DNA of 64,000 nucleotides from Gammaproteobacteria bacterium (GTDB lineage: Bacteria; Pseudomonadota; Gammaproteobacteria; DSM-16500), in contig DATIJJ010000014.1 in assembly GCA_035478795.1 (NCBI GenBank), forward strand, positions 13,930 through 77,929. The letters run 5' to 3'. The position numbers and the translations under genes are program-made. Positions 9,779 through 61,111 of this stretch are shown here, piece after piece. Under the pieces are notes generated by a model. The model was given only the letters and a program-made list of their open reading frames with translations, was not told the DNA's origin and made no database searches. Within the stretch, counting starts at the first letter, position 1, and every line of letters begins with the position of its first letter.

Positions 9779-10540
9779 ATGGCATTATTTGTCGGGCTGG
9801 GATTGGGTATCCTGATATTGGTATTTCTGGGTTTAAGAATTGTCCAGCAATATGAAAAAGGCGTTGTGTTTCGATTTGGAAAAATAATTAGCGTTCGAGA
9901 GCCTGGGTTAAACCTGGTTATTCCATTTATTGACTGGATGCGGAATGTTGACCTGCGGATTGTGACGCTACCGATTCCACCACAAAAAATCATCACCAAA
10001 GATAATGTATCTGTTGATATCTCGGCTGTCGCTTATTTTAAAATTATAGATGCTGTGAAAAGCATCGTTGCTATTCAGGATGTCTATTCGGCAATTGACC
10101 AGATAGCCCAAACGTCCCTTCGCAATATTGTAGGAAAATTTCAGCTGGATGAAATTCTCTCTGAACGAGCCACAATAAATTCGGAAATTACTAAAATTCT
10201 TGATACATATAGTGAAGTATGGGGTGTCGTGGTAAATAGTGTTGAAATCAAAGACATCGAATTACCCGATAATATGCAACGTGCCATTGCCAAACAAGCT
10301 GAAGCAGAACGGGAAAAGCGCGCTAAAATTATTTCTGCTGAGGGCGAGTTTTTGTCTGCACAAAAACTCGCGGATACAGCAGACATTATGATGGCACATC
10401 CGATCGCTTTACAGCTCAGAAATTTACAAACGCTTTCCGAAATTGCGGTAGAAAAAAATTCAACGATCATTTTTCCTGCGCAATTAATGGGAACGGTGTC
10501 CGAGATTCAACGTTTTGTGAGAGAAGAAAAGATCACATAA
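9779..10540 (+). CDS. SPFH/band-7 (stomatin-like) membrane protein
   Basis: N-terminal TM segment followed by [16 protein letters not shown].....PGL..VIPFID...VDLR and the Ala/Glu-rich [17 protein letters not shown] segment. Confidence 0.85.
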
Positions 10541-31620: not shown

Positions 31621-32604
31621 ATGTTGAATACTAATCCGAATACGCCGTATGCAAACCTGAAGCCTGATAGCATTCTTGATGCCGTAGAAAGTGTTGGTTT
31701 TCGTTGTAACGGCAGCCTGTTTCCCCTGAATAGTTATGAAAATCGTGTTTATCAGATTGGAATAGAGGAAGCCGATCCTGTTATCGCGAAATTTTACCGC
31801 CCCCTGCGCTGGAGTAATGAGGCGATTCTGGAAGAACATCAATTTGCGGCGGAATTATCCGCGCACGAAATTCCTGTGGTTGCTCCACTGGTGATGAAAA
31901 ATAAAACGCTACACGATTACAAGGGTTTTCGTTTTGCCCTGTTCGTGCGCCGGGGTGGACGAGCGCTTGAGCTGGATAGCCTGGAGCAACTGGAGTGGAT
32001 GGGTCGATTTATTGGTCGTCTTCATGCAACAGGCGCCTGTCGATCCTTTCATCACCGACACACACTCACTGTGGATTACTTTGGATTCGCTCCCTGTCAT
32101 TTTTTGCTTGAAAACAATTTTATTCCTGACTATTTGAAACAGCCATTTGGCGAAGCCATTGAGACCGCTTTAAACCGGATTAAAATTATTTTTCAACAAA
32201 CCGGTGAAATAAAGCAAATCCGCCTGCATGGTGACTGTCATGCAGGTAATGTTTTATGGCGCGACAGCGGCCCACACATTGTAGATCTCGATGATTGCAT
32301 GATGGGTCCGGCTATTCAGGATCTCTGGATGTTGCTGTCAGGAAATGAAATGCAAATGCAAGCGCAACTGGAACGGATCTTGTGGGGTTATTGTGAATTT
32401 CATGATTTTAATTATCGTGAGCTTCACCTGATTGAAGCCTTGCGTACCTTGCGCATGTTGCATTATTCAGCCTGGCTTGCCAAACGCTGGGAAGATCCCG
32501 CATTTCCCTTAAATTTTCCCTGGTTTAATACAGCGCATTACTGGCAAGAACAACTGAACAATTTAAATGAACAAATTCAAAAGCTGCCATTAGCTCTCAG
32601 CTAA
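31621..32604 (+). CDS. srkA: Stress response Ser/Thr kinase SrkA (YihE/RdoA)
   Basis: Collinear with E. coli YihE as I remember it: PLNSYENRVYQ, KFYRP.RW, ILEEHQFA, RLHGDCHAGN.LWRD, VDLDD...GPA.QDLWML, DPAFP.NFPW. Confidence 0.9.
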   Translation: MLNTNPNTPYANLKPDSILDAVESVGFRCNGSLFPLNSYENRVYQIGIEEADPVIAKFYRPLRWSNEAILEEHQFAAELSAHEIPVVAPLVMKNKTLHDYKGFRFALFVRRGGRALELDSLEQLEWMGRFIGRLHATGACRSFHHRHTLTVDYFGFAPCHFLLENNFIPDYLKQPFGEAIETALNRIKIIFQQTGEIKQIRLHGDCHAGNVLWRDSGPHIVDLDDCMMGPAIQDLWMLLSGNEMQMQAQLERILWGYCEFHDFNYRELHLIEALRTLRMLHYSAWLAKRWEDPAFPLNFPWFNTAHYWQEQLNNLNEQIQKLPLALS

Positions 32605-33054
32605 TAATGAAAGCCGCTGGTAATGTTCCAGTGCCTGCTCGAGTGCCCGTTTGTCATGGGTCAGAGCCATTTTTTCCTGCTGCCATTGATTAAACAGCTG
32701 TTGCCAACGCCGGTTATTTTGACGGTATTTTTCCAACTCTGTTTTTAATTCGGCTATTTCCTGCTGATAGTTCAATTCAATTGGTACAAACTGTTCTGTT
32801 GATTGACTCAGTACGTTTTCCCAGAGTCCTTTAATCATTTCAATCAAAAATTCCGGCATCGGCCCCCTCAAAACGATTTTGGAAGTTTTGTTTTGTGCCT
32901 GTCTAAAACGACGCAAGTGCTGATTGATGGTGCCGGCGCTTCCTGTGCCGAGAAAATGGCGCACATTCTCAATAGTAATATTTTTATCCTGGCCTTTTAA
33001 TGCGCTGATTGCCGAGATAACATCTTCGTACGTAATTCCATGACGAGCCATCAT
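32590..33054 (-). CDS. KfrA_N-like DNA-binding protein with coiled-coil tail
   Basis: The N-terminus ITYEDVISAISALKGQDKNITIENVRHFLGTGSAGTINQHLRRFR resembles the KfrA N-terminal domain. The remainder is heptad-rich. It overlaps the srkA 3' end by 15 nt (convergent). Confidence 0.5.
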   Translation of the reverse strand: MMARHGITYEDVISAISALKGQDKNITIENVRHFLGTGSAGTINQHLRRFRQAQNKTSKIVLRGPMPEFLIEMIKGLWENVLSQSTEQFVPIELNYQQEIAELKTELEKYRQNNRRWQQLFNQWQQEKMALTHDKRALEQALEHYQRLSLLAES

Positions 33055-33116: not shown

Positions 33117-33488
33117 TTAACTGTGTATATATTTATCAATTATATCGGGCAATGTTTTTATATCGACAGGCTTGGCAATGTAACCATTACATCCTGCCGC
33201 CAATGCCTTTTCTTTATCTGTTTTCATGGCATAAGCGGTTATTGCAATAACAGGAATGTGTTTATACCGGGGATCAGCTTTTAGTTTGCGCGTCAATTCA
33301 AGACCATCCATTCCGGGTAATTGTATATCAACCAGAATAAGCGCCGGTTTAACTGTTTCCAGCAGAGATAACGCTTCTCTCGCATCCATTGCCCGATAAA
33401 CGTCATACTTTTTCGCAGTCAATAAATAATCCATCATTTTCAGATTAAGCAGATTATCTTCTATGATCAAGATGGCTTCGCCTGACAT
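33117..33488 (-). CDS. Single-domain CheY-like response regulator
   Basis: IIEDN, LILVDIQLPGMDG, IAITAYA, KP: all canonical receiver residues are present; 123 aa. Confidence 0.9.
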   Translation of the reverse strand: MSGEAILIIEDNLLNLKMMDYLLTAKKYDVYRAMDAREALSLLETVKPALILVDIQLPGMDGLELTRKLKADPRYKHIPVIAITAYAMKTDKEKALAAGCNGYIAKPVDIKTLPDIIDKYIHS

Positions 33489-33512
33489 GTAAAAAATTTA
33501 CCTCATTCTCTC

Positions 33513-35174
33513 TTATAGCTCAGATTGTGGAAGATATTTTTCAACCCCAATAAATTTGCTTATGTTCAGGTCTTCGCCTTGTATCATCACTCGCTGGATT
33601 GAAGCATTAAAATGTAGCTGCTCTTCATCACTTAACTGTCTTGTCGACCAAATAATGACGGGCGTAAACAACCCTCTTTCAGTTTGCCGATAATAACGCA
33701 GAAATTCCGATCCATCCATTCCCGACGCGTAGGGATCCAATAAGACAACATCAGGACATTCCTGCTCCAATGCAAGCAATGCACCCACTTTATCTTTTCG
33801 AGAAATGACACGAAAACCAGCCTTGCTTAATACAGTATGAGCAAATAATAATGCTTCCTGATCGCTATCAATAATAAGAATCATTTTATTTTGACCGGCC
33901 AGTATTTCAATCCGCGAAAGAGCAGAAAGCAATTCTTTTTGCGTGGATGGCTTCACTAAAAAATCCCGAATTTTACAGCCTGTTTGTATCGGCGGCTCCA
34001 ATATGGCTTTAATCACCGTCGGATAAATATCATGCGCAGCAATTTTGGAACGCAGCGTACGAATCAGTTCAAAGCTGCCAGAATCTGGTTGAAATAAATC
34101 AAGAATGATCGCATTAAATGGATGCTGCATATTTTTTTTAATTGCTTCTTCCGTACTATTTGAGATGACAACATGATAACCCGCTTGAATCAAAGCATTG
34201 ACCATGAACTCTCTTGCTTGTGATGCTTGTTCAATAACAAGAATAGCAGGGACCTGTTCATTATTTTCGGGCGAACCTTTTCCTTTTGTTTTGTCATTTT
34301 CCCAGGTTTTATAGTAAGGAAAGCACGGCAACACAGCAAAAAAGGTGCTTCCTTTACCGATAAGACTCTCCACACCCACCTGCCCTCCCTGAGCTTCGAC
34401 AATTTTTTTGGTAAGAGCAAGCCCAAGACCTGTGCCTTGATAGGATTTTTTTGAACCGATATCCAGTTGTTGAAATTTAACAAACAGTTTTTTTAAATCT
34501 TCCTCGCGAATACCAATACCGGAATCCTGCACTTCCAAACGAAAATTCTTTTTTCCGAACCGGGCAATATTGACAGTAACACGCCCATCAGGTGGAGTGA
34601 ATTTAAGCGCATTGGATATATAATTATAAAATACCTGTTTAAGTTTTTTAGGATCAATGATGATCTCATTCAAAGCAGGGTCCATTTTAATTTCAAACTG
34701 AATATTTTTATCAGCGATAATTTTATAAAAAATTTTTCGAATGTTTTTGATTAATTTATACAAGTCTGTTTTTTCAGGATGAAATTCCATTTTATTCGAT
34801 TCAATTTTTGCAAGATCAAGCACATCGTTTATAAACACCAGCAGATGATTTGCGCTATCAACAATGTCATTCAAAAATTCATGATACCTGGGTGACCTGG
34901 TATCTAACAGACCATCTTTTAATATTTCTGAAAACCCAATAATGGCATTTAATGGAGTGCGCATTTCATGTGATATATTGGCAATAAACTCGTTTTTTAA
35001 TCGATCAGATTCTTTTGCTGAATAGATGATTTTTTCAAATGCCTGGTTTTTTGCCTGAAGATTTTTTACAGAAATTTCCAGTTGTTCTGCATAATGTAAT
35101 GCCGCCTGCCATTCCTTGTAGTAATTGGTCGCATTACTTTTGTTGCTTCCCATAAACACATCCCTGTCAGCCAT
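33513..35174 (-). CDS. Soluble hybrid histidine kinase (short coiled-coil N-terminus, HisKA, HATPase_c, two receiver-like domains)
   Basis: H-box ISHEMRTPLNAIIGFSE, N-box NYISNALKFT, G-boxes DSGIGI and GTGLGLALTK. Two REC-like segments follow (AIILDLFQPD.., VVLLDPYASGMDG). There is no hydrophobic segment and no recognisable sensor domain ahead of the H-box. Confidence 0.85.
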   Translation of the reverse strand: MADRDVFMGSNKSNATNYYKEWQAALHYAEQLEISVKNLQAKNQAFEKIIYSAKESDRLKNEFIANISHEMRTPLNAIIGFSEILKDGLLDTRSPRYHEFLNDIVDSANHLLVFINDVLDLAKIESNKMEFHPEKTDLYKLIKNIRKIFYKIIADKNIQFEIKMDPALNEIIIDPKKLKQVFYNYISNALKFTPPDGRVTVNIARFGKKNFRLEVQDSGIGIREEDLKKLFVKFQQLDIGSKKSYQGTGLGLALTKKIVEAQGGQVGVESLIGKGSTFFAVLPCFPYYKTWENDKTKGKGSPENNEQVPAILVIEQASQAREFMVNALIQAGYHVVISNSTEEAIKKNMQHPFNAIILDLFQPDSGSFELIRTLRSKIAAHDIYPTVIKAILEPPIQTGCKIRDFLVKPSTQKELLSALSRIEILAGQNKMILIIDSDQEALLFAHTVLSKAGFRVISRKDKVGALLALEQECPDVVLLDPYASGMDGSEFLRYYRQTERGLFTPVIIWSTRQLSDEEQLHFNASIQRVMIQGEDLNISKFIGVEKYLPQSEL

Positions 35175-35331
35175 TCTTCTGATTATATTATCAAAAAAAA
35201 GACATCAATGATGTATTTTATTGATTAAATTAACAAAATATCTGGCACTTTTTCTCTATAAAACCCCATTTTTTTAAAATATGAACCATACTTAAAACGT
35301 AGACATGTGATTTATCAGGGGTTAATAACTC

Positions 35332-38300
35332 ATGCAGAAGACCGGAAGGTTTCTTTTGGGTGTGCGTAGGAGCGTGACTCATTTCGCTCTGTCTTTTCTG
35401 TTGAGTTTGTTTTTATTTTTGGATGCCGCAGCCAATCCGGCAGGCGGTGTGGTCGCAGCCGGTGATGCGACGATTTACCATGGGCTTACTACGACCGTCA
35501 TTCATCAAACTACAAACAAGGCGATTATCAATTGGCAAAGTTTTAATATTGCCGCTCACGAAACAACGAATTTCAGACAGCCCTCATCCAGCGCTGTGAT
35601 GTTAAATCGCATTAATCCGGCGCAAGGCGTTTCGCAAATTTATGGGCATCTGAATGCAAATGGGAGAATCATCCTGGTCAATCAGGCTGGAATCTATTTT
35701 GGCCCGGGGTCCTTTGTGAATGTCGGTGGAATTATTGCATCGACTTCCAATATTTCAAATGAAAATTTTCTTGCCGGAAAATATATTTTTGATGAAGCCT
35801 CGCCTTATGCCGGCTCAATCATTAATGAAGGATCCATTATTGCAAAAGATAATGGTCTTGTTGCATTAATTGGAACGGGCGTCAGTAATAGTGGCTTGAT
35901 TCAGGCAAAACTGGGAAATGTTGTGCTTGCATCAGGAAATAAATTTACGATGGATTTTAATGGCGATCAACTGATTAATTTCACTGTTGATGAGGCGACA
36001 GGTGTTGCAGGTAAGGATAGAAATGGCAATCTTTTAAAAAATGGCATCAAAAATACAGGAAAAATTATTGCGAATGGCGGCACTATTCTTGTAACAGCAC
36101 GCGTCGCAAAAAATGTATTGGATAATGTCATCAACATGAAAGGTATTGCCATGGCCCGCTCGGTTGGAAAACATAATGGCGTTATTATTTTATCGGCGGG
36201 TGATGGAACGCTGAAAGTGTCGGGTCGTTTAGACGTTTCTTCGCGTAAAGATCAGGGCGGCACGATTAAAGTGTTGGGCGATCGCGTTCAAATTGAATCA
36301 CACGCCGTATTAAATGCCAGCGGTAAAACAGGTGGCGGTGAAATTTTAATCGGCGGTAATGCACACGGTGCAGGGCCAGAACAGAATGCGAGTTACACTT
36401 ATATTGGTCCAAACGTTACTATTTTTGCCGATGCGCTTGATAAGGGGAATGGTGGGAAAGTCGTCGTCTGGTCTGATCAGGGAACCGGATTTTATGGAAC
36501 TATTTTTGCTCGCGGCGGCGCTTCAGGCGGCAATGGCGGTTTTGTTGAAACGTCAGGCAAAGCGTATCTGGATGCCATGGGTATGGTTGACGCCAGTGCA
36601 AAGGCAGGGTTGCCCGGACAATGGCTGTTGGATCCGTTTAATGTCACCATCACAACGACCACAACAAATGGTGCATTTGACTCAGGTAATCCCAACACCT
36701 ACACACCCACCGCGAATAATGGCACTGCAAACGCAGCGACAATTAATGCCTCATTAAACGGTGGAACCAGTGTCACCATTACAACAGGATCAACAGGTGC
36801 CCAGGCAGGCAATATCACAGTCAGTTCTGCCATTCTGAAAAATGCGGGCCTAACCACACCAACGCTGACATTAAATGCAGCAGGAACCATTACGATTAAT
36901 AACACCCTTTCCGCAACCAGCGGCGGTCTCAATGTGACATTAACAGGCGATGCATTAACCCTGAACTCAGCCGTCACAACCAATGGCGGAAACTTTTTAA
37001 GTACCACACAAAATGCAACGACGCTCGCGAGTGCCATTTCGACGGGAGCCGGAACCGTTAGTATTAATGTCAATCAGGATGGTTTAGGCGCAAATGCATT
37101 TGCAATGAACGCAGGCAGTTCTATTACCACAACCAATGCAAGTGCCTCTGCTGTCTCAATTGCTGTGAATACAGCATCAGGCGGCACGGGCACGGCAGCT
37201 TTACGAAGCATTACAACAGGGAGTGGCGGGACAATTTCTGTTTCAACCAATTCAGCAAATGGTAATGACATTACAATGCCTGCAGGCCTGTTGGATGTCG
37301 GTACTGGAACTGTAACGCTATCTACATCACAACTGGCTGGACGAACAATTGGCACATCTGCTTTAAATATACAGATCAAAGCGGGAAATTTTAATGCCAC
37401 AACAGGAAATAGCGGGATCTTCGTCACCAATACAGGAACAACAGGACTCAATCTGGGAACAGTCAATTCAACAGCCGGATTAACACTGACATCCACAGGA
37501 AGCACAGGTATTACGGATAGCGGAACGCTGACCCTGCCAGGAACACTCACCGTTGCTGCGGGCGCGACGCAAGATATCACTCTGAATTCCGCTACCAATA
37601 ATTTTGGTACTGCTGCGATAACCAGTGGACGCAATGTCACGCTGGTTGATACAGATGGAATTATATTGGGCGCTTCAACTATTTCCGGCACATTGAATAT
37701 TTCAGCAGGTGGCACGGTTTCACAAAGCGCTGCATTAACGGTTTCCGGAACACCGACTTTTACCGTCACAACACCCTTATCTGATATTTTATTATCTACC
37801 CAGGCAAATGCGTTCAGCACAACACCGGTCTTTACGAATAACGGAAATATACGTGATTTGGGCTTAAGAAACACACTGGCGAGCGCTGCTGTTCCTGTGA
37901 TACCAACAGGCATGAGAAATTTAACGTTGACATTTGATAATGCAGGCATGACGCTGCCCGCCATGACGTTAACCGGTACATTAACGGCAACAGCAAATGG
38001 AGTTATCGCGCAGAGTGGTGCAGAAAACATTACAGGGGTTACGACACTTTCAGCAGGTAGTGGAAATGATATTACTTTAAATAATGCAGGCAACAACTTC
38101 AGTACAGCAACGATTACATCGGGTAATAATGTCTTGCTGCGTGATCTCAATGCATTGATATTAGGTGCATCAACGATCAGCGGTACATTAGGTGTCACGA
38201 CTAATGGTGCCATTACACAAAGTGGTGCTGGCGGATTATCTGTAACAGGTGCAACTACCCTCGATGCCGGATCAGCAAATAACATCACACTGAATACAGC

Positions 38301-41103
38301 AACCAATAATTTCAGTTCTGTCGGTATTACAAGTGGAAATAATGTGTCATTACGAGACGCCAATTCACTTGTTTTAAATACATCAACAGTCAGTGGAACG
38401 TTAGGCGTTACAACAGCAGGATTACTTTCCCAGTCAGGGGCTTTAACAGTCACAGGCGTAACTACTCTGGCAGCAGGTGCCACAAACGACATTACACTGA
38501 ATAATACCAATAATGATTTTAGTCGTGTGAATGTCACAACAGGCAATAACGTTACGTTAGTGGATACCAATGCGTTGATTCTGGGTACCTCGACTGTCTC
38601 AGGTACATACAATGTAACAGCAGGCGGCACGCTCTCTCAAAATGGTGTGTTAACCATTACGGGAACACCCACTTTCACCCTGACGACACCACTGACCGAT
38701 ATTTTATTATCAACATCGGCGAATGTATTTACGACAACGCCGGTTATTACCAATAATGGGAACGTACGCGATTTGTCACTACGCAATACAGCAGCCACTG
38801 CTGCCGTGCCAACTCTTCCATCCGGTCTTCGCAATTTGACACTGACTTTTAATAATAATGCAATGACATTGCCTGCAGTCACCCTGACAGGCGCATTTAC
38901 AGGACAGGCATTGGGGAATCTGGCCATCGGCGGCAATCTGACGACAGGTGCCAATTCAACTGTCACGGTGACAGCCGGTTCGTTTTCCGTATCAGATGGT
39001 GCAACGTTTAATACAAATAATACGAATCTTTCTGTCACCGCGACAGATCTCAATTTAAATACCACCGGTGCATTAAATGTGGGAAGTGGTACGTTAAATG
39101 TCACACAGAATACAGCCAGCGGAAGTATTGGTTTGGGAAATACCGCGGGCACGATGAGTATTAGCGGTTCAGAACTGCAACGCATGATAGCGGCTATTTT
39201 TAATCTCAATGCCCCTTCCGATGGACAAATTATTGTAGATGGCATCACGGCAGCTAACAGCGCAAACATTGCATCAATGCGTTTCTTTGGAAACAGTGGA
39301 CAAGTCAGCAGCATGATTTTCGAGAATAATCCTTCAAGCTTCAAATCACTGACTGCCAGCATCGATGATGGTATCACAATCGGTAGCGGAGCCGCTTTAA
39401 CAACGACTGCCGGGAGTATGACACTGAATGGTGATTCCGGTGGTATCGGTGGCGTAAATAATGCCGTTATTTTATTTGATAATGTCACTTCAGCAGGAAC
39501 GCTAACCTTAACTGCACCGACCAACGGTGTTATTTTAAATGCGCCTGTCACTCTGACTGCAAATGGTATAACAATCAATCCTGTCGTGAATGGGGCACAA
39601 AATCTCATCATTAACGCCGGCACAGGAACAATCAACTTTAATTCTGCAGTGGGTGCAACAACTCCCTTATCCAGCTTGAGCATCACAACAACGACAAATC
39701 CTGCGATTAATGTCAATGTTAATACGACCGGCAATATCAGCGTGATTTCCGCTGGAAATCTGACGTTAGCTGCCGGTGGCAATCTGACAAGCAGTGCAGG
39801 GAGCATTTTTCTGATGAGCGGTAGCGCTATGACACTGAATTCAACGATCACAGCCAATGCAGCAGGTGACTCGATTGTAGTGGTTGGACAAACGTTTAGA
39901 AATAACAAGGGAACCAGTGTTTTTAATCCGGGTATCGGCAATTATCTTGTCTGGTCAGGTGATCCGGCCAATGACAATCGTGGCGGTCTGACCTATAACT
40001 TTAAACAATATAACGCAACCTATGGATCAACACCGGTTGCAGGAACAGGGAATGGATTCCTCTATACAACAGCGCCTGTCATTACAGCTTCTCTGACCGG
40101 TTCGACCACAAAAGTATATGACGGTAATACGAATGCAACGCTGACAAACAGTAACTATATTTTTTCCGGCGAAATAGATGGTGATACAGTCACGCTTAAC
40201 GAACCGTTGAATGGAAATTACAGTTCACCGAATGTGGGTACAAACATTCCGGTAACCGTTTCAGGAATAACTATTCTGAGTGCAACGAATGGAAGTGCAA
40301 CCGTGTATGGCTATCAGGTTACGCCAACAGCAAGTGGAAATATCGGCATCATTACCCCGGCTATCATTCCACCGGTTCCGCCAGTTCCACCTGTGAATGA
40401 ATCGTCGATAGTCAATGCGATTACGCCATTCCAGAATGGAAATCAGCTTCAGAAAAATAACACAGAAAATACAAATATCAGTATCGTTAACAATAGCCTG
40501 ACAGGAAGTGGTATTCAAAATATCGCTATCGCAGAAAAAACATCCAGCGTTTTACAGCATGCATCTTCTGACACGCAAAGTGAATTCATGCAGTCGCTTT
40601 TTGCGGGTTATCCGAATCTCGAGGTCTCATCAAATAATAATTTAATATTGCTGCTCACCTTGTTAGTTCTGTCTTCTTTCCTGTTCACACAGACATTCAG
40701 AAAATACAGAGTTAATTTTATAAGTCATTTTCCATTAAATGAAAACATGTCAGCCATATCATTTAAGTTGCGTAGTTCGCTTGACAGTATTAATGGTTTT
40801 GCCGGATTACTGTATTTCAATGAAGCAGGAACATTCTCTCAAAAACAAATGGAATTTTTGAGTGATATTTTAACTGAGTCAAATATTATTTTATCCAATC
40901 TTTCAAAAATGGAATCCGGTTCAACTTCCATCGACGAGGCGTTATCCACCTTTCAATTTAATCTTCGTACATCCCTTAACAGCATCATTGGCTTTGCAAA
41001 TTTAATTGATCAGGGAACGGCTGGCGAAATATCCCCATTACAAAAAGAATTTATTCAAAATATTATTTCAGGATCCAATGAAGCATTAAAAACTGTACAA
41101 TAA
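35332..41103 (+). CDS. FHA-like two-partner-secretion exoprotein (TpsA), 1923 aa, with atypical C-terminal TM helix and two His-less HisKA-like modules
   Basis: Signal peptide (..LDAAA-NPAGG) and TPS domain (IINWQSFNI, FRQP, LNRI, GHLNANGRIILVNQAGIYFG). Then a long T/N/G/A-rich repeat region, an MBG-like segment (YDGNTNATL..), a PPVPPVPPV linker, the TM LILLLTLLVLSSFLFTQTF-RKYR, and finally SFKLRSSL..GF and QFNLRTSL..GF. Confidence 0.85.
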   Translation: MQKTGRFLLGVRRSVTHFALSFLLSLFLFLDAAANPAGGVVAAGDATIYHGLTTTVIHQTTNKAIINWQSFNIAAHETTNFRQPSSSAVMLNRINPAQGVSQIYGHLNANGRIILVNQAGIYFGPGSFVNVGGIIASTSNISNENFLAGKYIFDEASPYAGSIINEGSIIAKDNGLVALIGTGVSNSGLIQAKLGNVVLASGNKFTMDFNGDQLINFTVDEATGVAGKDRNGNLLKNGIKNTGKIIANGGTILVTARVAKNVLDNVINMKGIAMARSVGKHNGVIILSAGDGTLKVSGRLDVSSRKDQGGTIKVLGDRVQIESHAVLNASGKTGGGEILIGGNAHGAGPEQNASYTYIGPNVTIFADALDKGNGGKVVVWSDQGTGFYGTIFARGGASGGNGGFVETSGKAYLDAMGMVDASAKAGLPGQWLLDPFNVTITTTTTNGAFDSGNPNTYTPTANNGTANAATINASLNGGTSVTITTGSTGAQAGNITVSSAILKNAGLTTPTLTLNAAGTITINNTLSATSGGLNVTLTGDALTLNSAVTTNGGNFLSTTQNATTLASAISTGAGTVSINVNQDGLGANAFAMNAGSSITTTNASASAVSIAVNTASGGTGTAALRSITTGSGGTISVSTNSANGNDITMPAGLLDVGTGTVTLSTSQLAGRTIGTSALNIQIKAGNFNATTGNSGIFVTNTGTTGLNLGTVNSTAGLTLTSTGSTGITDSGTLTLPGTLTVAAGATQDITLNSATNNFGTAAITSGRNVTLVDTDGIILGASTISGTLNISAGGTVSQSAALTVSGTPTFTVTTPLSDILLSTQANAFSTTPVFTNNGNIRDLGLRNTLASAAVPVIPTGMRNLTLTFDNAGMTLPAMTLTGTLTATANGVIAQSGAENITGVTTLSAGSGNDITLNNAGNNFSTATITSGNNVLLRDLNALILGASTISGTLGVTTNGAITQSGAGGLSVTGATTLDAGSANNITLNTATNNFSSVGITSGNNVSLRDANSLVLNTSTVSGTLGVTTAGLLSQSGALTVTGVTTLAAGATNDITLNNTNNDFSRVNVTTGNNVTLVDTNALILGTSTVSGTYNVTAGGTLSQNGVLTITGTPTFTLTTPLTDILLSTSANVFTTTPVITNNGNVRDLSLRNTAATAAVPTLPSGLRNLTLTFNNNAMTLPAVTLTGAFTGQALGNLAIGGNLTTGANSTVTVTAGSFSVSDGATFNTNNTNLSVTATDLNLNTTGALNVGSGTLNVTQNTASGSIGLGNTAGTMSISGSELQRMIAAIFNLNAPSDGQIIVDGITAANSANIASMRFFGNSGQVSSMIFENNPSSFKSLTASIDDGITIGSGAALTTTAGSMTLNGDSGGIGGVNNAVILFDNVTSAGTLTLTAPTNGVILNAPVTLTANGITINPVVNGAQNLIINAGTGTINFNSAVGATTPLSSLSITTTTNPAINVNVNTTGNISVISAGNLTLAAGGNLTSSAGSIFLMSGSAMTLNSTITANAAGDSIVVVGQTFRNNKGTSVFNPGIGNYLVWSGDPANDNRGGLTYNFKQYNATYGSTPVAGTGNGFLYTTAPVITASLTGSTTKVYDGNTNATLTNSNYIFSGEIDGDTVTLNEPLNGNYSSPNVGTNIPVTVSGITILSATNGSATVYGYQVTPTASGNIGIITPAIIPPVPPVPPVNESSIVNAITPFQNGNQLQKNNTENTNISIVNNSLTGSGIQNIAIAEKTSSVLQHASSDTQSEFMQSLFAGYPNLEVSSNNNLILLLTLLVLSSFLFTQTFRKYRVNFISHFPLNENMSAISFKLRSSLDSINGFAGLLYFNEAGTFSQKQMEFLSDILTESNIILSNLSKMESGSTSIDEALSTFQFNLRTSLNSIIGFANLIDQGTAGEISPLQKEFIQNIISGSNEALKTVQ
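37549..38892 (+). repeat. Nested intragenic repeats inside the TpsA gene
   Basis: A ~143-aa segment (37549-37977, TVAAGATQDITLNS...PAMTLTG) recurs at 38464-38892 (TLAAGATNDITLNN...PAVTLTG). About 58-aa units (..AG..NDITLN.A.NNFS...ITSGNNV.LRD.N.L.LG.STISGTLGVTT.G...QSG) lie in between. Confidence 0.8.
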
Positions 41104-42357: not shown

Positions 42358-44388
42358 ATGTCATCGATTACGCCCAAACAACTTCTGCCATTTTATCCCG
42401 TTGAAAAGACAGAAAAGCTGGCGTACGACATCAATCACATTTTGTTGACCTGCTCTCCCGATAAGGCATGGAACACATTGTCCAAAGAAATTCTGTCGCG
42501 AGACATTGCTTTCGAATGCCATCTGCTTTTATTTTCCATCTGTTACCCGAACTGGCGTGACCTGCCCGATACTGCACCGGCATGGTTACCGGATGCCGAT
42601 ACACTGTCTTCATCCAACCTTGCTCTCTGTCTGCAGGAAACCCGGCATCCATCGATCAAGGCATTTCACGAATGGAGCACGAAACATCCGGGTGATTTCT
42701 GGCAATACATGATTGCCCGGCTGGATGTGCTGTTTTATACAAAACCGTCTGTGATTTATGATGCAACATCCGGTGCAGAAAACCCGGTGTGGCTGTCAGG
42801 CGCTACCTTTAACATCGCAGACAGTTGCCTCACAGCCGATCCTGAAAAAATTGCGATTATACAACAAAAAAAATCCGGGCCGCTTGAATACTACCGCTAT
42901 GATGATCTAAACAAACTTTCCAATCGTATCGCAAACAGTCTGGTCAAATGTGGATTTTCACAAGGTGATGCGCTGGCCATCCTGATGCCCATGAATTTTT
43001 ACGCCGTCGCCATTTACCTTGGTATACTCAAAATGGGCGGCGTCGTCGTTTCCATTGCAGACAGTTTTTCACCGGATGAAATTGAATTGCGTCTGAAAAT
43101 TGCATCCGCCAAAGGCATTTTTACACAGGATTTTATTTCTCGTGAAGACAAAATCATTTCGCTCTATGAAAAAGTGATTAAAACATCCGTACCCATGGCT
43201 ATTGTACTTTCTCTCAATGAAACACCGAATGACACGCTTCGAAAAAACGATATCTCCTGGGAAAATTTTTTGATAGGAGATGATCATTTTAATGCATGCG
43301 CATGCGAGGCAAATACATTTTGTAATATTTTATTTTCTTCCGGCACCACCGGAAATCCCAAAGCCATTCCATGGACGCATCTGACCGCCATCAAGGCAGC
43401 AAGCGATGCGCATTTGCACCAGGACATCCACGAAAATGACATTCTGGCCTGGCCCACCAGTTTGGGCTGGATGATGGGACCGTGGCTGATTTTTGCAGGA
43501 CTCATGAACCATGCAACGCTCGCTCTTTATGAAGATTCACCACGCGATCGATTCTTCGGTGAATTTGTTCAGGATGCAAAAGTGACGCTGCTCGGTGTCG
43601 TTCCAACGCTTGTTGCAACATGGCGCCAATCTGCTTCAATGCAAGGACTGGATTGGCATCACATCAGGCGTTTCAGTTCAACCGGTGAATGTTCAAATGC
43701 GGAAGACATGTTGTATCTTATGATGCTCGCAGACTACAAACCGGTCATTGAATATTGTGGCGGCACAGAAATCGGTGGCGCGTATGTCTCGGGCACATTG
43801 CTTGAAAATAATTACCCCTCCCTTTTTACCACACCGGCATTTGGCATCGATTTTGTGTTGCTCGATGAAAAAGGAAGCCTGACAGATCACGGTGAGGTTG
43901 CATTGATTCCACCTTCCATCGGTCTGTCACAGACCCTCCTGAATGCAGATCATCATAAAACGTACTATGCCGGTATGCCGACACTTCCCGATGGAAGAAT
44001 CACGCGTCGGCACGGGGATCAGTTACAACGGCTTCCCTCCGGCTATTACCGCGTTACGGGTCGAACAGATGACACGATGAATCTCTCCGGCATCAAAACA
44101 AGCTCTCAGGAAATTGAACGGGTATTGGCCGGTATGGAAAACATAACTGAAATTGCTGCCATTGCAATTACACCGCTTGCAAGGGGACCGGGTCGTCTCG
44201 TCATCATTGCTGCAACCGATAAAAACGTCGATCGGGAACTCATCAAAAAAAACATGCAAAAGAGACTCAATGAGCATTTGAATCCCCTTTTTAAAATACA
44301 CGAAGTGATTCTGGTACGAGAGTTGCCAAAAACCGCGTCCAATAAAATGATGCGGCGCCTGCTGCGAGAACAGTATCAGTCAACCTGA
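42358..44388 (+). CDS. AMP-forming acyl-CoA synthetase / AMP-binding enzyme
   Basis: AMP-binding core FSSGTTGNPKAIPWTH, GYY...GR.DD..N.SG.K. AAGGAG lies 7 nt before the ATG at 42358. Confidence 0.8.
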   Translation: MSSITPKQLLPFYPVEKTEKLAYDINHILLTCSPDKAWNTLSKEILSRDIAFECHLLLFSICYPNWRDLPDTAPAWLPDADTLSSSNLALCLQETRHPSIKAFHEWSTKHPGDFWQYMIARLDVLFYTKPSVIYDATSGAENPVWLSGATFNIADSCLTADPEKIAIIQQKKSGPLEYYRYDDLNKLSNRIANSLVKCGFSQGDALAILMPMNFYAVAIYLGILKMGGVVVSIADSFSPDEIELRLKIASAKGIFTQDFISREDKIISLYEKVIKTSVPMAIVLSLNETPNDTLRKNDISWENFLIGDDHFNACACEANTFCNILFSSGTTGNPKAIPWTHLTAIKAASDAHLHQDIHENDILAWPTSLGWMMGPWLIFAGLMNHATLALYEDSPRDRFFGEFVQDAKVTLLGVVPTLVATWRQSASMQGLDWHHIRRFSSTGECSNAEDMLYLMMLADYKPVIEYCGGTEIGGAYVSGTLLENNYPSLFTTPAFGIDFVLLDEKGSLTDHGEVALIPPSIGLSQTLLNADHHKTYYAGMPTLPDGRITRRHGDQLQRLPSGYYRVTGRTDDTMNLSGIKTSSQEIERVLAGMENITEIAAIAITPLARGPGRLVIIAATDKNVDRELIKKNMQKRLNEHLNPLFKIHEVILVRELPKTASNKMMRRLLREQYQST

Positions 44389-46950
44389 TTGCACAACAGG
44401 ATTTTTCAAAAATTTGAAAATCGTCTCAGCATCGGCGGGTGGACTGATGTAATACCCCTGAATTTCAGTGCATTTTTCCTGTGTTAAAAATTCATATTGC
44501 ACTTTTGTCTCAACGCCTTCTGCGACAGTTTTGATGCCAAGCTTGTTCGACATGGCAATAATGGCACTGACAACCGATGTACTTGCCGGATCTATTGTTA
44601 ATTTCTGGATGAATTTTCTGTCGATCTTGATTTTATCAATTGAAAAACGTCTGAGATAATCCAGTGAGGAATATCCTGTGCCAAAATCATCAATGGCGAC
44701 ACTAATGCCTTTTTCTTTCAGGGATAACAGAACAGGCAAAATATATTCCGGATCTTCCATGATGAGGCCTTCTGTAATATCCAGCTCAAGGTATTGCGAG
44801 GGAAATTCCAGTGTATCCAGCATGGTCAGCAGATTTTCTACAAAATTGGCCTGCTTGAATTGCTTGCCAGACAGATTGACCGATACACTCAACGGCATCA
44901 TGCCCGCCTGATGCCATGCCTTCACTTGCAGACAGGCTGACTGAAAAACCCACTCGTTTAGCGGAATAATCAATCCGGTTTCCTCGGCAAGATGAATGAT
45001 CTCGGAAGCATTGACATTGCTGTATTCGGGATTATGCCAGCGCAAGAGTGCTTCCACACCGGAAACAGCCTGCGTCGCGAGATTCAGTTTCGGCTGGAAA
45101 TAAAGGACAAACTCATCTCTCGCCATCGCTTGCACCAGCGCATTCTGACGTGCCATTTTTTGCTGGGCTTTGGTTGTCATTTCCAATGTACAAAACTGAA
45201 AATTATTTCGCCCCAGTTCCTTTGAACGATACAGGGCAAGATCCGCATTTTTCATCAAGGTCTGAACGTCAATACCATCGTAGGGGTAGACGCTGATCCC
45301 GATACTGGTTGTCACATAAATTTCGTGGCCCTTAATGGAAATCGGCTGCAAAAGATGCGCCAGAATATTACGGATGACGTTACTGATTTTATCGACCTGA
45401 TTCAATTCACTGAGAATGAGAACAAATTCATCGCCACCGACACGTGCGATAATATCTGTCGTCCGGATTTTATTTTTAAGACGCTGTGCCACAATCTGCA
45501 ACAGAGAATCACCTGCATCATGACCCATCGTGTCATTGATATTCTTGAAGCGATCAAGATCCAGAAAAATCAGTGCAAAACCATGCTCATGACGTGAGGC
45601 ATTTGTCAGGATTTCCTGCGCTTTTCTCTCAAGGGAATTTCGATTGTAAAGCCCCGTCAGTGCATCGTGATAGGCCAGATGCCGAAGCTGTTCCTCCGCT
45701 TTTTTTTCTGTCGTGATATTCTGTAATTGCATGATGAAATAAAGTGGAAGATCCTGACTGTCACACACCAGAGACATGCTGGCAGAAACCCAGACTATCT
45801 CCCCTTCCCTGTGCATATAGCGTTGAATTTTTTCATACATCTTATTTTTTCGATCCAGCATTTCACCGATGCGAATTCTGTTTTCCTGTAAATCCTCAAG
45901 ATGCATAAGTTTATAAATATCCATTGCCAGCAAACTGGCTTCGGGATATCCCAGAATATGGCAGAGTGCTCTGTTTACCTTAAAAAAACTGCCATTCGGC
46001 AATACGAGTGCCATACCGACCGCCGCATCGTCAAACGCAGAACGAAATCTGTTTTCGCTTTCTTTCAACAATAAATTGGTTCTCACCAGTTTTTTTTCCG
46101 AATTGATCATTCTTCCGATGATGGGCACCAGCTGCCATAAAAGTATTCCCATCCCGGTGATAACAGCCACTGACAGGATGGATTTCATTTGAGGCAACAT
46201 TTCATTGAAAGGAATACCCGAAGGCGAGAGTTTCAGGATGGCAAACACACTCATCAGCAGCGTGCAGAAAAGAATGGTCAACCCTAATGAGACAGCCTGC
46301 TTTCCTTCATCGTCCGGCGACATAAGCGACCATGCAGCCTTTTCTTTTTGATGCCATAAAGACCAAAGCCCCAATCCCAAAAAAGAATTACCAATTGCGC
46401 TCAGCAGTGACATTTTGGCATGCAGGTTCCAGCTATACAAAACTTCTGCTCCAAAGAGATACCCTGCCAATGCAGAAAATCCCAAAATCAGTGCCCCAAA
46501 AATACAAATCTGAACGAGCAAGGCAATCCTTTTTTTAGCAATCCAGGGAAAAAGAGCAAGCGCTCCTCCCGATAAAAAAAACACCCAGGCACTGCTGTCA
46601 GCCATTCGTCCGGGATGGGGATTTTGATCAATGAGCCAGGGATCCATCAACAGTTGATCGATCCCGAGAGAAAAATGAAAAATATTTTCACTGAGCGTCA
46701 TCAATGCAAACAACGCGACAAATACACCTGTCACTGAACGCATTTTTTCCTGGGATATTTTTTTCGAGCCGGGGAATAAAAGCGCCACGCCCATGAGGAG
46801 AAATCCGACAGCGGAATTAAAAACAATGTTTACCTCACCAGGGTAAAGTGAAATAAACATGCGAATATGCGCATACCAGCCCAGCATGGCAAGAAAACCG
46901 ATGGCAACGAGAATCAACCCTGTTACACGTGTGAGTGCTGTTTCTTTCAT
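44380..46950 (-). CDS. Membrane-bound PAS-GGDEF-EAL c-di-GMP signalling protein
   Basis: About 8 N-terminal TM segments and a PAS-like region. Also GGDEF (RVGGDEFVLIL), EAL (VEALLRW), and DDFGTGYSSL, KIDR.F. Confidence 0.9.
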   Translation of the reverse strand: MKETALTRVTGLILVAIGFLAMLGWYAHIRMFISLYPGEVNIVFNSAVGFLLMGVALLFPGSKKISQEKMRSVTGVFVALFALMTLSENIFHFSLGIDQLLMDPWLIDQNPHPGRMADSSAWVFFLSGGALALFPWIAKKRIALLVQICIFGALILGFSALAGYLFGAEVLYSWNLHAKMSLLSAIGNSFLGLGLWSLWHQKEKAAWSLMSPDDEGKQAVSLGLTILFCTLLMSVFAILKLSPSGIPFNEMLPQMKSILSVAVITGMGILLWQLVPIIGRMINSEKKLVRTNLLLKESENRFRSAFDDAAVGMALVLPNGSFFKVNRALCHILGYPEASLLAMDIYKLMHLEDLQENRIRIGEMLDRKNKMYEKIQRYMHREGEIVWVSASMSLVCDSQDLPLYFIMQLQNITTEKKAEEQLRHLAYHDALTGLYNRNSLERKAQEILTNASRHEHGFALIFLDLDRFKNINDTMGHDAGDSLLQIVAQRLKNKIRTTDIIARVGGDEFVLILSELNQVDKISNVIRNILAHLLQPISIKGHEIYVTTSIGISVYPYDGIDVQTLMKNADLALYRSKELGRNNFQFCTLEMTTKAQQKMARQNALVQAMARDEFVLYFQPKLNLATQAVSGVEALLRWHNPEYSNVNASEIIHLAEETGLIIPLNEWVFQSACLQVKAWHQAGMMPLSVSVNLSGKQFKQANFVENLLTMLDTLEFPSQYLELDITEGLIMEDPEYILPVLLSLKEKGISVAIDDFGTGYSSLDYLRRFSIDKIKIDRKFIQKLTIDPASTSVVSAIIAMSNKLGIKTVAEGVETKVQYEFLTQEKCTEIQGYYISPPADAETIFKFLKNPVVQSG

Positions 46951-59047: not shown

Positions 59048-61111
59048 TTATCGGACACTTATCGCCGGAACTGTATTGATGCTGGGAGCACGGCTACGTA
59101 ATGGTTGTGTTGGATCATTTGAAGGCGCGCCTCCTCCAAACGACCATCGCAGTGACGACGTTTTGAGCGGCTTAAGACTGCTCAGTAGAGAAGGTCTTCT
59201 GGCAGACTCATCCTCCTGAACAAAACTGGATCTGTTGTGCCTCACCTCCGCATCCCGCCGTTTCTGAAACACTCTCAACGCCAGATTCGCCAGCTGAACC
59301 TGCTGCGTCAAATGTTTTGTCTTCTCGACCGATTCTTTCAAGGCTTCTTCTGCCTTGGCCTGCTTGCGGTTGATGTTGTATTCATACACCTTGAGCGCAC
59401 CGTACAAAATGCCGACACCAAATATGAGCGCAATTGTCACCGGATTACTAAAAGCCGCCGCCGCAAATGGCAAATAAATCGCAGCGCCCTTGATTAAAAG
59501 ACACCGCATCACAAAGGCAGCCGTCGTAATACTGTTGATAAAGGTTAACGAACGGATACCCGCCTTCTTGACCTGCGACCACCACTTGATGGAGGTACGC
59601 GATCTGGCACCACCAAATTGCGGATTATCGAGCTCCGGCAATGTCATCGGCAATACCCTGTCTTCAGGCGACAAGCCGGCTTTTATTTGATTAATCTCTT
59701 TAAGCGTATTCCGGTACTGTGCTTCGAGACTCAACACACCTGTCTCTGCCTGCTTCGCCAACTCGACTTTCGCATCCACCGCTACATTTTGGCGAGCGTA
59801 ATGACCGATTCCCGCTTTATAAATACCGTACAATACACTGCCCGCAATAATCGCAGAGCCCATGATGGTATTGATCACCGGGATACTCTCAAGACCGGCA
59901 CCTACCAGGAGCAGAAAATCGGATGTAATCCAGGAAACGTATTGGAGATTGACATACATTGATACCATGTTCGTAAACCAGGACAATGTATTTTTCTTCG
60001 ATACGATGTCCCCGTTATTTTGGGCCAGCAATTGTATCTGGGCATGCAATTTTTCAGACTGTCCCGTGACCTTCAGCAAATCCGGATTTTTGCTCGCTTC
60101 TTTCAACTCTTTCTGCAATGTCTCTGTTGCCGCATCAAATCGCTGACGCAACACGACTTGCCGCATGATAGCGATCTTGTCGGCCTCAACCATCGCCTGT
60201 TCATCATCGGTTGCAACATCGGGAGCCGGTGTTGCAGCCCGTTTGTAATGACGCACAAAATTAATCGTCTTGACCAGGGGATACAAGAGTCCAATCGCCG
60301 CTGGAATACCAAATGCAACCGGCGTCGACAAGCCCACAATGCCATTTGAAAAACGACCGACATAACTGCCTACAGAAATCCACATTAACCAGTACATGCA
60401 AGCGCTGATAAATGTTCCGGTATACACAGGATTCAAAATTCTCCTGTTAAACCAGTGATTCTTGTAAGCCAGGTACAGGTTTTGTCGCCTCAACTTTTTG
60501 TGCAGATCATAATTCTCTTCGCGAAGCTTGAAAACCCACTCGTTCTTATCAATCGTGACAGACTCATATTTTTTGCCAAGCTCCGGATTATCTTTCAAAA
60601 TAGCTGGCAAATGGCGTTCAATTGCCTTTTTGACAGTTTCCTCGGCCGCTGCTGCATCTGTTGCCTGCTTTTTCTTTTTAGACACGCCGTCTTTTTCTTC
60701 ATCCAAAAGCGCCTGACGGATATGTTCGTAACTGCTGTGTTCCTTTATTTTTTGTTGTTTGTAATATTCGCGTGCAGCATTACCTGTCACAAGCAGTACT
60801 GCAAGACACAGCAGAAAAAAAGTGTGCGTCGGATCATGCGCTGTAAAACCAATACCAGGACCTGTTGCATCGCTATTGCCCGAAAAAATCTGGTCGCATA
60901 ATTGAGGATAACGGCCTTCGTACGTCATATACAAATCAACAGGTGTGACGATAGTATCCAGCATCAGGTTTTCATACTGGGCTGATGAAGGCCACCGTTT
61001 TTGAAAGAAAGATTTTTTGGGCGTCGACAATGGCACCCGGACGGATTTTTTGTTTACTGTCTGGAGCTCCACTCCTTCGTTTAGAATAATTGTTTTTCGC
61101 ACGCCCACCAT
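59048..61111 (-). CDS. Hypothetical 687-aa membrane protein with three or four bilobed hydrophobic hairpins, coiled-coil linkers and a Ser/Pro-rich tail
   Basis: A long ORF with its own terminator. I recognised no catalytic motif. Hydrophobic hairpins include TGTFISACMYWLMWISVG...GLSTPVAFGIPAAIGLLYPLV. Confidence 0.7.
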   Translation of the reverse strand: MVGVRKTIILNEGVELQTVNKKSVRVPLSTPKKSFFQKRWPSSAQYENLMLDTIVTPVDLYMTYEGRYPQLCDQIFSGNSDATGPGIGFTAHDPTHTFFLLCLAVLLVTGNAAREYYKQQKIKEHSSYEHIRQALLDEEKDGVSKKKKQATDAAAAEETVKKAIERHLPAILKDNPELGKKYESVTIDKNEWVFKLREENYDLHKKLRRQNLYLAYKNHWFNRRILNPVYTGTFISACMYWLMWISVGSYVGRFSNGIVGLSTPVAFGIPAAIGLLYPLVKTINFVRHYKRAATPAPDVATDDEQAMVEADKIAIMRQVVLRQRFDAATETLQKELKEASKNPDLLKVTGQSEKLHAQIQLLAQNNGDIVSKKNTLSWFTNMVSMYVNLQYVSWITSDFLLLVGAGLESIPVINTIMGSAIIAGSVLYGIYKAGIGHYARQNVAVDAKVELAKQAETGVLSLEAQYRNTLKEINQIKAGLSPEDRVLPMTLPELDNPQFGGARSRTSIKWWSQVKKAGIRSLTFINSITTAAFVMRCLLIKGAAIYLPFAAAAFSNPVTIALIFGVGILYGALKVYEYNINRKQAKAEEALKESVEKTKHLTQQVQLANLALRVFQKRRDAEVRHNRSSFVQEDESARRPSLLSSLKPLKTSSLRWSFGGGAPSNDPTQPLRSRAPSINTVPAISVR

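Follow-up and report, generated by a model that had tools for sequence, protein, structure and literature searches.

A TpsA-type exoprotein with a predicted cytoplasmic tail of histidine-less DHp-like hairpins, encoded beside a soluble hybrid histidine kinase and a CheY-like regulator

The window analysed here, a 64,000-nucleotide stretch of contig DATIJJ010000014.1 (positions 13,930 to 77,929, forward strand; assembly GCA_035478795.1, Gammaproteobacteria bacterium), contains a gene for a TpsA exoprotein of the two-partner secretion (TPS) type and, divergent from it, genes for a soluble histidine kinase and a single-domain CheY-like response regulator (Table 1). This TpsA departs from the usual soluble TPS passenger in its C-terminal anchor, a transmembrane (TM) helix followed by a positively charged tail that resembles a tandem pair of HisKA-type DHp hairpins with phenylalanine in place of the phospho-accepting histidine, and its gene keeps company with that of the kinase in related genomes. 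The best explanation is that kinase, regulator and TpsA form one functional module, in which the tail may serve as a non-catalytic docking site.

A kinase protein of identical sequence is present in NCBI from the metagenome-assembled genome GCA_964427775.1 ('Gammaproteobacteria bacterium'), and the genes of the locus were therefore judged to be real; the NCBI gene call for the kinase is 546 aa long and starts at Met8. The ORF list confirmed the coordinates at which an earlier reading made from the DNA letters and their translations (the sequence-only reading) had placed the three open reading frames (ORFs), and measurement bore out the AT-rich divergent spacer of 157 bp that it had described. 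The gap between the kinase and regulator genes, which both lie on the minus strand, had been given as 25 nt and is 24 nt; past this gap, nothing is claimed about co-transcription of the pair.

The C-terminal tail of TpsA

A TM helix and two HisKA-like hairpins make up the last ~150 residues in 4/4 TpsAs with a visible C-terminus, namely those of the window and of the related loci L004, L005 and L009. Tail identity across these orthologues is 37-57%, and Phe occupies the phospho-His position in both hairpins of all four proteins. Pfam HisKA matched the window tail at residues 1878-1921 with an E-value (E) of 0.0018, which falls below the cut-off, and a profile of the four orthologous tails matched the DHp domains of GacS and HK853 in the PDB, that of GacS being the best match.

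A tail profile was run exhaustively against 1.84 billion representative proteins, and a motif census of the matches then revealed a tail family of ~40 clusters at 50% identity, from which 91 repeats were scored. The His position of these repeats is occupied by Phe (86) or Tyr (5) and never by His. Position +1 is mainly Lys or Asn, where the canonical residue is Glu, position +3 is Arg in 85/91 repeats, position +4 is Thr or Ser in 82/91, and position +5 is Ala or Ser, the canonical hinge Pro never being found there. No ATPase (CA) motif was detected in any protein of the family. The module always lies at the extreme C-terminus, with a TM helix ahead of it in most members, and the number of repeats per protein is 2, 4 or 6. 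Long members have a TPS N-terminus, and short ones (143-230 aa) comprise little beyond the TM helix and tail. Those proteins that carry a name are annotated as 'filamentous hemagglutinin N-terminal domain-containing protein' or 'hypothetical' and come from uncultured Gammaproteobacteria; the only species-representative genome with a tail is that of an uncultured Coxiellaceae bacterium, and neither Pfam nor NCBIfam has a curated model for the tail.

Other searches recovered less of the family. A single-sequence word-indexed search with the tail gave no match, the profile version of this search returned mostly ordinary kinases and two true tails, and scans of genome and metagenome contigs with tail patterns, which are too narrow for divergent tails, retrieved only the known Coxiellaceae contig and generic HisKA kinases. 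Three short tail proteins (P0159, P0162 and P0164; 317-375 aa) possess a signal peptide and a TPS-end-like fragment (…VINMNGVAQAKSV… / …NAVNLSGVNVAKSVGVKNGVIILGG…) and no shaft, and look like TpsAs from which the filament has been deleted.

Counted over the 28 family members that are long enough on both sides of the TM helix, Lys plus Arg number 112 in the 15 residues that follow it and 33 in the 15 that precede it, and the excess is seen in 29/31 tail proteins. By the positive-inside rule, the TpsA tail is predicted to lie in the cytoplasm. The distance from the TM helix to the first Phe box is 10-33 residues, as in membrane kinases whose TM helix runs into the DHp. An AlphaFold2 (AF2) model of the 153-aa tail contains helices at residues 29-58, 67-91, 97-123 and 132-152 (mean predicted local distance difference test score 78, mostly above 80; predicted TM-score 0.70), and Foldseek with this model found nothing significant, its matches all being generic four-helix bundles of one chain. 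These results, taken with the even repeat numbers, suggest that the tail fits a DHp 'dimer' made of one chain, and a single-chain four-helix bundle is the predicted fold.

The sequence-only reading had proposed that the tail mimics the dimerisation domain of the neighbouring kinase. When sequences were scored against the same tail profile as used in the library search, the window kinase reached 38 bits and its close orthologues (at least 50% identity) 37-49 bits, the more distant relatives P0018 and P0020 scored 56-57 bits, the median for 120 kinase relatives was 53 bits, and the best unrelated kinases in the whole library scored 61-88 bits. A recent copy or specific mimic of the neighbouring DHp is ruled out by this comparison, and the proposal was dropped. 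What the two share, judging from a common pattern (…G-x-x-G-x-[IL]-S-x-x-Q-x-E-[FY]-L…), is membership of the same broad HisKA subfamily.

Ahead of the tail, TpsA has a hydrophobic segment at residues 14-36 in the signal peptide region, scores 67 bits with NCBIfam adhes_NPXG against a cut-off of 29, and carries in its shaft six beta-helical DUF5649 matches (E 3e-60) and a YDG domain (1584-1653) according to Pfam. Its Pro-rich segment, ~80 residues ahead of the TM helix, is also present in L004 and L005; the stretch resembles the periplasm-spanning spacers of TonB-type proteins. The G+C content of the shaft, 0.45-0.47, is among the highest in the window. Two long ORFs lie antisense within the TpsA gene, at 37074-38630 (minus strand, 518 aa) and 38637-39941 (minus strand, 434 aa); they are a Val/Pro/Ala-rich mirror of the Thr/Gly/Asn-rich repeats and almost certainly not genes.

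The TPS exoproteins CdiA and FhaB retain a C-terminal part in the periplasm (PMC9086364, PMC7644211, PMC13232309). The window TpsA resembles them in its N-terminal TPS domain, its long beta-helical shaft, a C-terminal region that would not be exported and a polypeptide that would span the outer membrane, and differs from them in having no pretoxin motif, toxin, immunity gene or adjacent TpsB. We know of no TM helix or cytoplasmic domain in CdiA or FhaB.

TpsA/CdiA proteins deliver C-terminal domains (PMC9086364), and the tail could likewise be cleaved and moved into a neighbouring cell in the manner of contact-dependent inhibition, where the His-less DHp would disturb or signal through the kinases of that cell. 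The hydrophobic segment could help membrane passage, and a DHp decoy could in principle poison two-component signalling. We nevertheless hold a delivered effector to be extremely improbable: TpsA contains no VENN-type pretoxin motif and has no PT-VENN match in Pfam, the gene downstream of it encodes an NAD-dependent epimerase (Pfam) and no small immunity-like gene is found there, the tail is conserved among orthologues and not polymorphic, and the positive-inside rule together with the short stand-alone TM-plus-tail proteins indicates a resident inner-membrane protein.

Linkage of TpsA, kinase and regulator

On contigs encoding kinase relatives, a TpsA gene lies upstream of an orthologous kinase in six distinct loci (the window, L004, L005/L006, L007/L008, L009 and L104), whose kinases are 51-67% identical to the window kinase. 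TpsA is directly divergent from the kinase in four of the six: the window, L004 (kinase P0002, 67% identity, no PAS domain), L005/L006 (P0003, 62%, with a PAS domain and beside a tailed TpsA) and L009 (P0011, 53%, no PAS domain). One or two genes, including one for an AAA_14 ATPase, are inserted between TpsA and kinase in L007/L008 (P0005, 55%) and L104 (P0012, 51%). The TPS N-terminus of the upstream gene in L104 was confirmed by hydropathy and comparison. The TPS domains of the L004, L005, L007, L009 and L104 TpsAs are 51-77% identical to that of the window, indicating that these TpsAs are orthologous. The gene call for TpsA in L007 (1-8399, minus strand) and L008 gives two genes, of 1005 aa (TPS plus PATR) and 4885 aa, with 20 nt between them; they represent either a giant interrupted TpsA or two genes. 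The contigs of L101, L103 and L012 end at the kinase.

The regulator follows the kinase in every locus but L009. It is 61-77% identical to its counterpart downstream of the orthologous kinase in seven other loci, and 55% in the more distant L105, making it the best conserved of the three proteins. As judged from the distribution of these genes, the kinase-regulator pair is an older and wider unit than the block with TpsA. Co-conservation, which the sequence-only reading had named as a check on its idea, was found in that TpsA lies upstream of an orthologous kinase in six loci, and among close orthologues the pair is not usually found without TpsA.

The genes outside the block differ in every TpsA-linked locus, the flanks being an epimerase and KfrA_N in the window, Vut_1 and DUF2845 in L004, a BclA_C-like protein and an OMP barrel in L005, and alanine dehydrogenase and a 1333-aa protein in L009. 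This bears on the possibility that the genes stand together by common descent without coupling, the tail having survived from an old fusion to the gene of a membrane kinase. Three facts would fit such neutral synteny: the loci all belong to a single group of related uncultured Gammaproteobacteria/Coxiellaceae, those examined number six, and in L007 and L104 inserted genes separate TpsA from the kinase. The block persists, however, through this turnover of its flanks, and the tail signature is specific in ~40 clusters, with Phe or Tyr and never His, Pro never kept, Arg and Thr kept, and even repeat numbers, unlike the outcome of random decay. We consider neutral synteny very unlikely.

The divergent spacer carries short stretches common to three orthologous loci, AAGTATGG/AAGTATAG and ATCAATAA/ATCAGTAA. 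Beyond these two stretches, the compared spacers (Table 1) are AT-rich and cannot be aligned. The common stretches could be a module-wide promoter or operator; a promoter/terminator scan of the locus was at chance level, with 26 found versus 23.5 expected. G+C content is ~0.32-0.41 in positions 1-30000 of the window and ~0.41-0.48 in 30001-64000, with a dip to 0.38 at 34001-36000.

Further genes of the window were noted in passing. The KfrA_N gene sits on a seemingly chromosomal contig, overlaps a convergent APH-family gene (31621-32604) by 15 bp, and is kept beside the regulator only in the near-identical contigs L002 and L003. Small OmpA-like barrel genes near the module in the window and in L005 were compared and are not orthologous. 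A 687-aa ORF at 59048-61111 (minus strand) has no match in Pfam or NCBIfam; it contains many hydrophobic stretches and charged coiled-coil-like segments and recalls effector or membrane proteins of intracellular bacteria.

Table 1. Positions of the module genes, their domains, neighbouring features and compared spacers (window coordinates unless a locus is named)
Feature	Position	Strand	Basis or remark
CheY-like single-domain regulator, 123 aa	33117-33488	-	ORF list, Pfam
Soluble histidine kinase, 553 aa	33513-35174	-	ORF list, Pfam, AF2
Kinase: N-terminal signalling helix, aa 12-59	34998-35141	-	AF2 helix 11-85 (numbering without Met1)
Kinase: HisKA/DHp, aa 60-126	34797-34997	-	Pfam HisKA, E 1e-20
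Kinase: phospho-acceptor His69 codon	34968-34970	-	
Kinase: HATPase_c catalytic domain, aa 174-283	34326-34655	-	Pfam, E 6e-26
Kinase: REC1 pseudo-receiver, aa ~309-421	33912-34250	-	CheY alignment; AF2 receiver fold, lower confidence
Kinase: REC2, aa ~430-545	33540-33887	-	Pfam Response_reg 432-515, E 1e-16
Divergent intergenic spacer, 157 bp, 75% A+T	35175-35331	.	Between kinase and TpsA starts; compared
TpsA-type exoprotein, 1923 aa	35332-41103	+	ORF list, Pfam
TpsA: Sec signal peptide, aa 1-34, and TPS secretion domain, aa 36-300	35332-36231	+	Pfam PF05860, E 6e-27
TpsA: Pro-rich segment IIPPVPPVPPV, aa 1678-1688	40363-40395	+	
TpsA: predicted inner-membrane TM helix, aa 1771-1789, then RKYR	40642-40698	+	Kyte-Doolittle hydropathy over 19 residues, 2.12
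TpsA: pseudo-DHp hairpin 1, aa 1805-1862	40744-40917	+	Box S-F-K-L-R-S-S-L, Phe1811 at phospho-His
TpsA: pseudo-DHp hairpin 2, aa 1869-1923	40936-41100	+	Box Q-F-N-L-R-T-S-L, Phe1876 at phospho-His
KfrA_N protein (plasmid replication-region DNA-binding)	32590-33054	-	Directly downstream of regulator
PAS-GGDEF-EAL protein	44380-46950	-	Three genes away from TpsA
L004 divergent spacer	7607-7736		Compared
L005 divergent spacer	9822-10000		Compared
L009 divergent spacer	6782-6953		Compared

Kinase architecture, receivers and sources of input

The kinase contains the N, G1, F and G2 boxes, and structure comparison with HK853 gave 37% identity and a TM-score of 0.87. Pfam finds no PAS, GAF or HAMP domain in it, it has no TM segment (the hydrophobic 19-mer maximum is 1.18 on the Kyte-Doolittle scale), and its AF2 model shows a continuous helix from ~residue 12 into DHp helix 1 with no N-terminal globular domain. 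Pfam, hydropathy and AF2 thus agree with the 553-aa kinase without TM, PAS or GAF of the sequence-only reading. An N-terminal PAS domain of ~115 residues is present in the close relatives P0003, P0005-P0010 and P0012-P0016, where it precedes the same helix with which the window kinase begins, and by alignment it is missing in the window kinase, P0002, P0004 and P0011. There is no space for a decayed PAS domain in the 157-bp spacer. On this alignment, the 'sensor-less' state of the kinase is derived, a lineage-specific loss of PAS.

Both kinase receivers, the stand-alone regulator and the orthologues of all three were aligned with CheY. This revealed that the regulator, which Pfam identifies as Response_reg at 6-117 (E 4e-28) with no output domain, has the complete catalytic quintet E-D / D / T / K, as expected from the canonical single-domain receiver that had been read at 33117-33488. 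In REC1 the residues are E-Q / D359 / K / K, with neither the second acidic residue nor the Thr, which agrees with the earlier remark that it lacks the usual acidic pair; Pfam gives only a sub-threshold PDE8A_N-like match in this region (302-363). REC2 has D-S / D480 / S / Q, without the second acidic residue and the Lys, a degeneracy absent from the earlier description. By the definition of PMC12632262, as applied to the aligned residues, REC1 and REC2 are both pseudo-receivers. REC1 is canonical (E-D/D/T/K) only in the more distant relatives P0018 and P0020, suggesting that its degeneration is specific to the clade of the window kinase. REC2 varies among relatives, and P0011 alone has it in fully canonical form. 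The contig of that kinase (L009) is likewise the only one without a stand-alone regulator; this is a single case, and the regulator could be elsewhere in that genome. The place at which the regulator would be expected (L009 8610-8877) is taken by a perfect inverted repeat of ~30 bp (GTTGCGAGCCTG…CAGGCTCGCAAC), and after it comes a gene of 1333 aa for which Pfam has no match.

Searching all six frames of the window with a profile of three Hpt proteins from related loci gave no Hpt (best E 1.8). Small Hpt genes (113-115 aa) convergent to the regulator occur in L101 (2446-2787), L103 (2858-3199) and L007 (20957-21304), which are loci of PAS-bearing kinase relatives, and those in L103 and L007 adjoin genes for a 173-aa receiver protein and a DsbD/thioredoxin fusion. 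Given the degenerate kinase receivers and the lack of an Hpt in the window, the simplest flow is from kinase His69 to the stand-alone regulator, and a phosphorelay is doubtful here despite the hybrid-kinase architecture.

The only PDB entry that aligned over all four kinase domains was 6QRJ (506 columns), ShkA of Caulobacter crescentus, a hybrid kinase of the order DHp-CA-Rec1(pseudo)-Rec2 in which the pseudo-receiver is the input domain (PMC6969517). The window kinase shares with ShkA a cytosolic location, the lack of an N-terminal input domain and the same four-domain order. The two differ in that Rec2 of ShkA is canonical and feeds the Hpt protein ShpA, whereas in the window kinase REC2 is missing the Lys and the second acidic residue, the kinase is followed by a canonical stand-alone regulator, and no Hpt was found in the window. 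ShkA also has a competing DDR linker motif, which is absent from the window kinase linker LSRIEILAGQNK. Its c-di-GMP site on Rec1 comprises R324, Y338, R344, S347 and Q351, and the similarity of the window kinase to ShkA is significant in the kinase core only.

The kinase could accordingly be autonomous, receiving its input through REC1 (a ligand such as c-di-GMP) or, in relatives, through PAS, with TpsA being only co-regulated or a target and the function of the tail being unrelated to the kinase. In support of this, binding of c-di-GMP to Rec1 switches ShkA, a kinase without N-terminal input (PMC6969517), GGDEF/EAL genes lie near the kinase in the window (44380-46950), L010 (EAL directly upstream), L012 and L105, and some loci have the kinase-regulator pair without TpsA. 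Against it stand the non-canonical REC2 and the linker without a DDR motif; the regulator, having no DNA-binding domain, lacks the means of regulating tpsA, and an autonomous kinase leaves unexplained both the cytoplasmic kinase-derived domain of TpsA and its persistence beside the kinase across rearranged contexts. We regard it as distinctly unlikely.

The sequence-only reading had instead supplied the kinase with input in trans from the TpsA tail, for example by sensing of contact or tension. In such a split sensor kinase, the signal from the filament would pass through the TM helix to the tail, which would bind the DHp or CA of the kinase and switch its autophosphorylation. The part of this that stands is the complementarity of the two proteins, TpsA having a signal peptide, an exported part, a TM helix and a DHp-like tail without CA, and the kinase having DHp-CA without TM or sensor, along with their conserved linkage and a TM-to-DHp linker as short as in membrane kinases. 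Four kinases that are TpsA-linked or closely related (the window kinase, P0002, P0004 and P0011) have lost PAS, which would also be tolerable with input from elsewhere. A precedent is the RetS-GacS DHp-DHp hetero-complex (PDB 7N0E), in which one DHp regulates another kinase by contact alone and a DHp from another protein can take the place of the homodimer interface, blocking autophosphorylation (PMC8498467), the GacS DHp being the top PDB match of the tail profile.

Input in trans fares less well. The PAS-bearing kinase P0003 adjoins a tailed TpsA and most close relatives carry PAS, so that the kinase family does not depend on the tail for input, and since the ShkA architecture has no N-terminal input, a missing sensor by itself does not call for an external one. 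RetS and GacS are complete kinases that swap half-bundles, whereas the tail, with its even repeats and AF2 fold, is predicted to be self-closed with no free half-bundle for heterodimerisation, and resembles the neighbouring DHp less than it does many unrelated kinases. We think an outside-in split sensor kinase unlikely.

A candidate docking role for the tail

DHp domains dimerise, take phosphate from CA and dock receiver domains. The tail no longer has what autophosphorylation requires, as the His (replaced by Phe), the acidic +1 residue, the hinge Pro and the ATPase domain have all been lost. Residues that pack the helices are still there, as is the Arg(+3)/Thr(+4) surface, the DHp face for receiver docking. 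Through duplication of the hairpin, the tail would apparently achieve dimerisation within one chain. The closest precedent is DivL (PDB 4Q20), which has Tyr for His and no kinase or phosphatase activity, and which docks the single-domain regulator DivK~P via the normal DHp docking surface; R553 (His+3) is required, the Y550F variant still binds, and information runs backwards from receiver to sensor (PMC4211667). Like DivL, the tail is a HisKA-type DHp with an aromatic residue for phospho-His (Phe, or Tyr in some members) and with Arg +3 kept, its likely partner is a single-domain receiver, and information would run from receiver to DHp. DivL differs in that it keeps CA and PAS and is a homodimer. 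The tail has neither domain and no hinge Pro, is predicted to form a bundle of tandem hairpins in one chain, and is joined through a TM helix to a secreted adhesin.

The reading that we favour, and to which we give just short of an even chance, is a DivL-like role for the tail, which would dock the regulator or the kinase encoded next door, or the receivers of that kinase, with no catalysis of its own. TpsA would be exported via Sec and then a putative TpsB, and its C-terminal stop-transfer helix would tether it in the inner membrane, leaving a tail of ~130 residues in the cytoplasm of the producer, where the two hairpins would fold together as a DHp dimer within one chain. The likeliest partner of the tail would be the output-less CheY-like regulator once phosphorylated by the soluble kinase, because it is the only canonical receiver at the locus and, having no output domain, must act by protein binding. 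Docking would tie the phosphorylation state of the regulator to an envelope-spanning adhesin. Inside-out control is slightly favoured from these sequences, since PAS ancestrally gave the kinase a sensor of its own and the regulator is without an output domain: the kinase would phosphorylate the regulator, which would bind the tail and act through the TM helix on the display, release or conformation of the filament. Alternatively, the state of the filament might sequester or release the regulator or kinase. The analysis itself establishes the genes present, their domains, the conserved block and tail signature, and a predicted topology and fold; anchoring in the inner membrane in vivo, physical contact between the partners and the direction of signalling are points that we infer.

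Several observations weigh against DivL-like docking within a TpsA module. The conserved Arg/Thr surface is also plain HisKA consensus and is no proof of receiver docking, and the AF2 model of the tail was built on a three-sequence alignment. The gene of a cognate TpsB (POTRA plus ShlB-type Omp85) usually adjoins that of its TpsA, and none was found among the large ORFs of the window or in the annotated neighbourhoods of L001-L009 and L104, and export of TpsA by the TPS pathway is therefore assumed. The linkage was examined from the kinase side, and the kinase-regulator pair occurs without TpsA in L010/L011 (P0013, 50%; EAL gene upstream) and L105 (P0020, 45%), and probably in L106 (P0010, 53%), where 1.6 kb upstream is visible. 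Finally, L009 has TpsA and the kinase with no regulator on the contig.

A bolder view, which we regard as possible but not probable, is that TpsA is one polypeptide across the whole Gram-negative envelope and the sensor half of a split two-component system that can be read in either direction. The filament would lie outside, the shaft would pass through TpsB, the Pro-rich spacer would cross the periplasm, the TM helix would sit in the inner membrane and the pseudo-DHp bundle would lie in the cytoplasm. Mechanical load or a ligand at the filament tip would then be read by the partner kinase or regulator in the cytoplasm; in reverse, phosphorylation of the regulator would control the adhesin from inside. 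If true, this would be an integrin-like bidirectional adhesin-signalling device in which a disabled kinase domain is combined with a type Vb exoprotein.

Each part of the module is of a known kind: a TPS exoprotein, a HisKA kinase, a CheY-like regulator and a pseudo-kinase DHp. No TpsA with a HisKA domain, TM helix or cytoplasmic domain was found in the full-text literature searched, in which both the fusion of a TM-anchored cytoplasmic Phe-DHp bundle to TpsA and the conserved pairing of a tailed TpsA with a ShkA-like kinase and regulator appear to be undescribed. To our knowledge, the TpsA proteins FHA (filamentous haemagglutinin) and CdiA keep their C-termini in the periplasm at most, and how Gram-negative bacteria signal adhesin engagement to the cytoplasm is largely unsolved. 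The block described here suggests that signalling inside the cell is connected with a secreted adhesin in a way not yet described. If this is correct, direct coupling from adhesin to cytoplasm, or from cytoplasm to adhesin, would become testable, the single-chain Phe-DHp bundle would be a new kind of pseudo-kinase module beside DivL and RetS, and an unannotated domain family of ~40 clusters would be defined.

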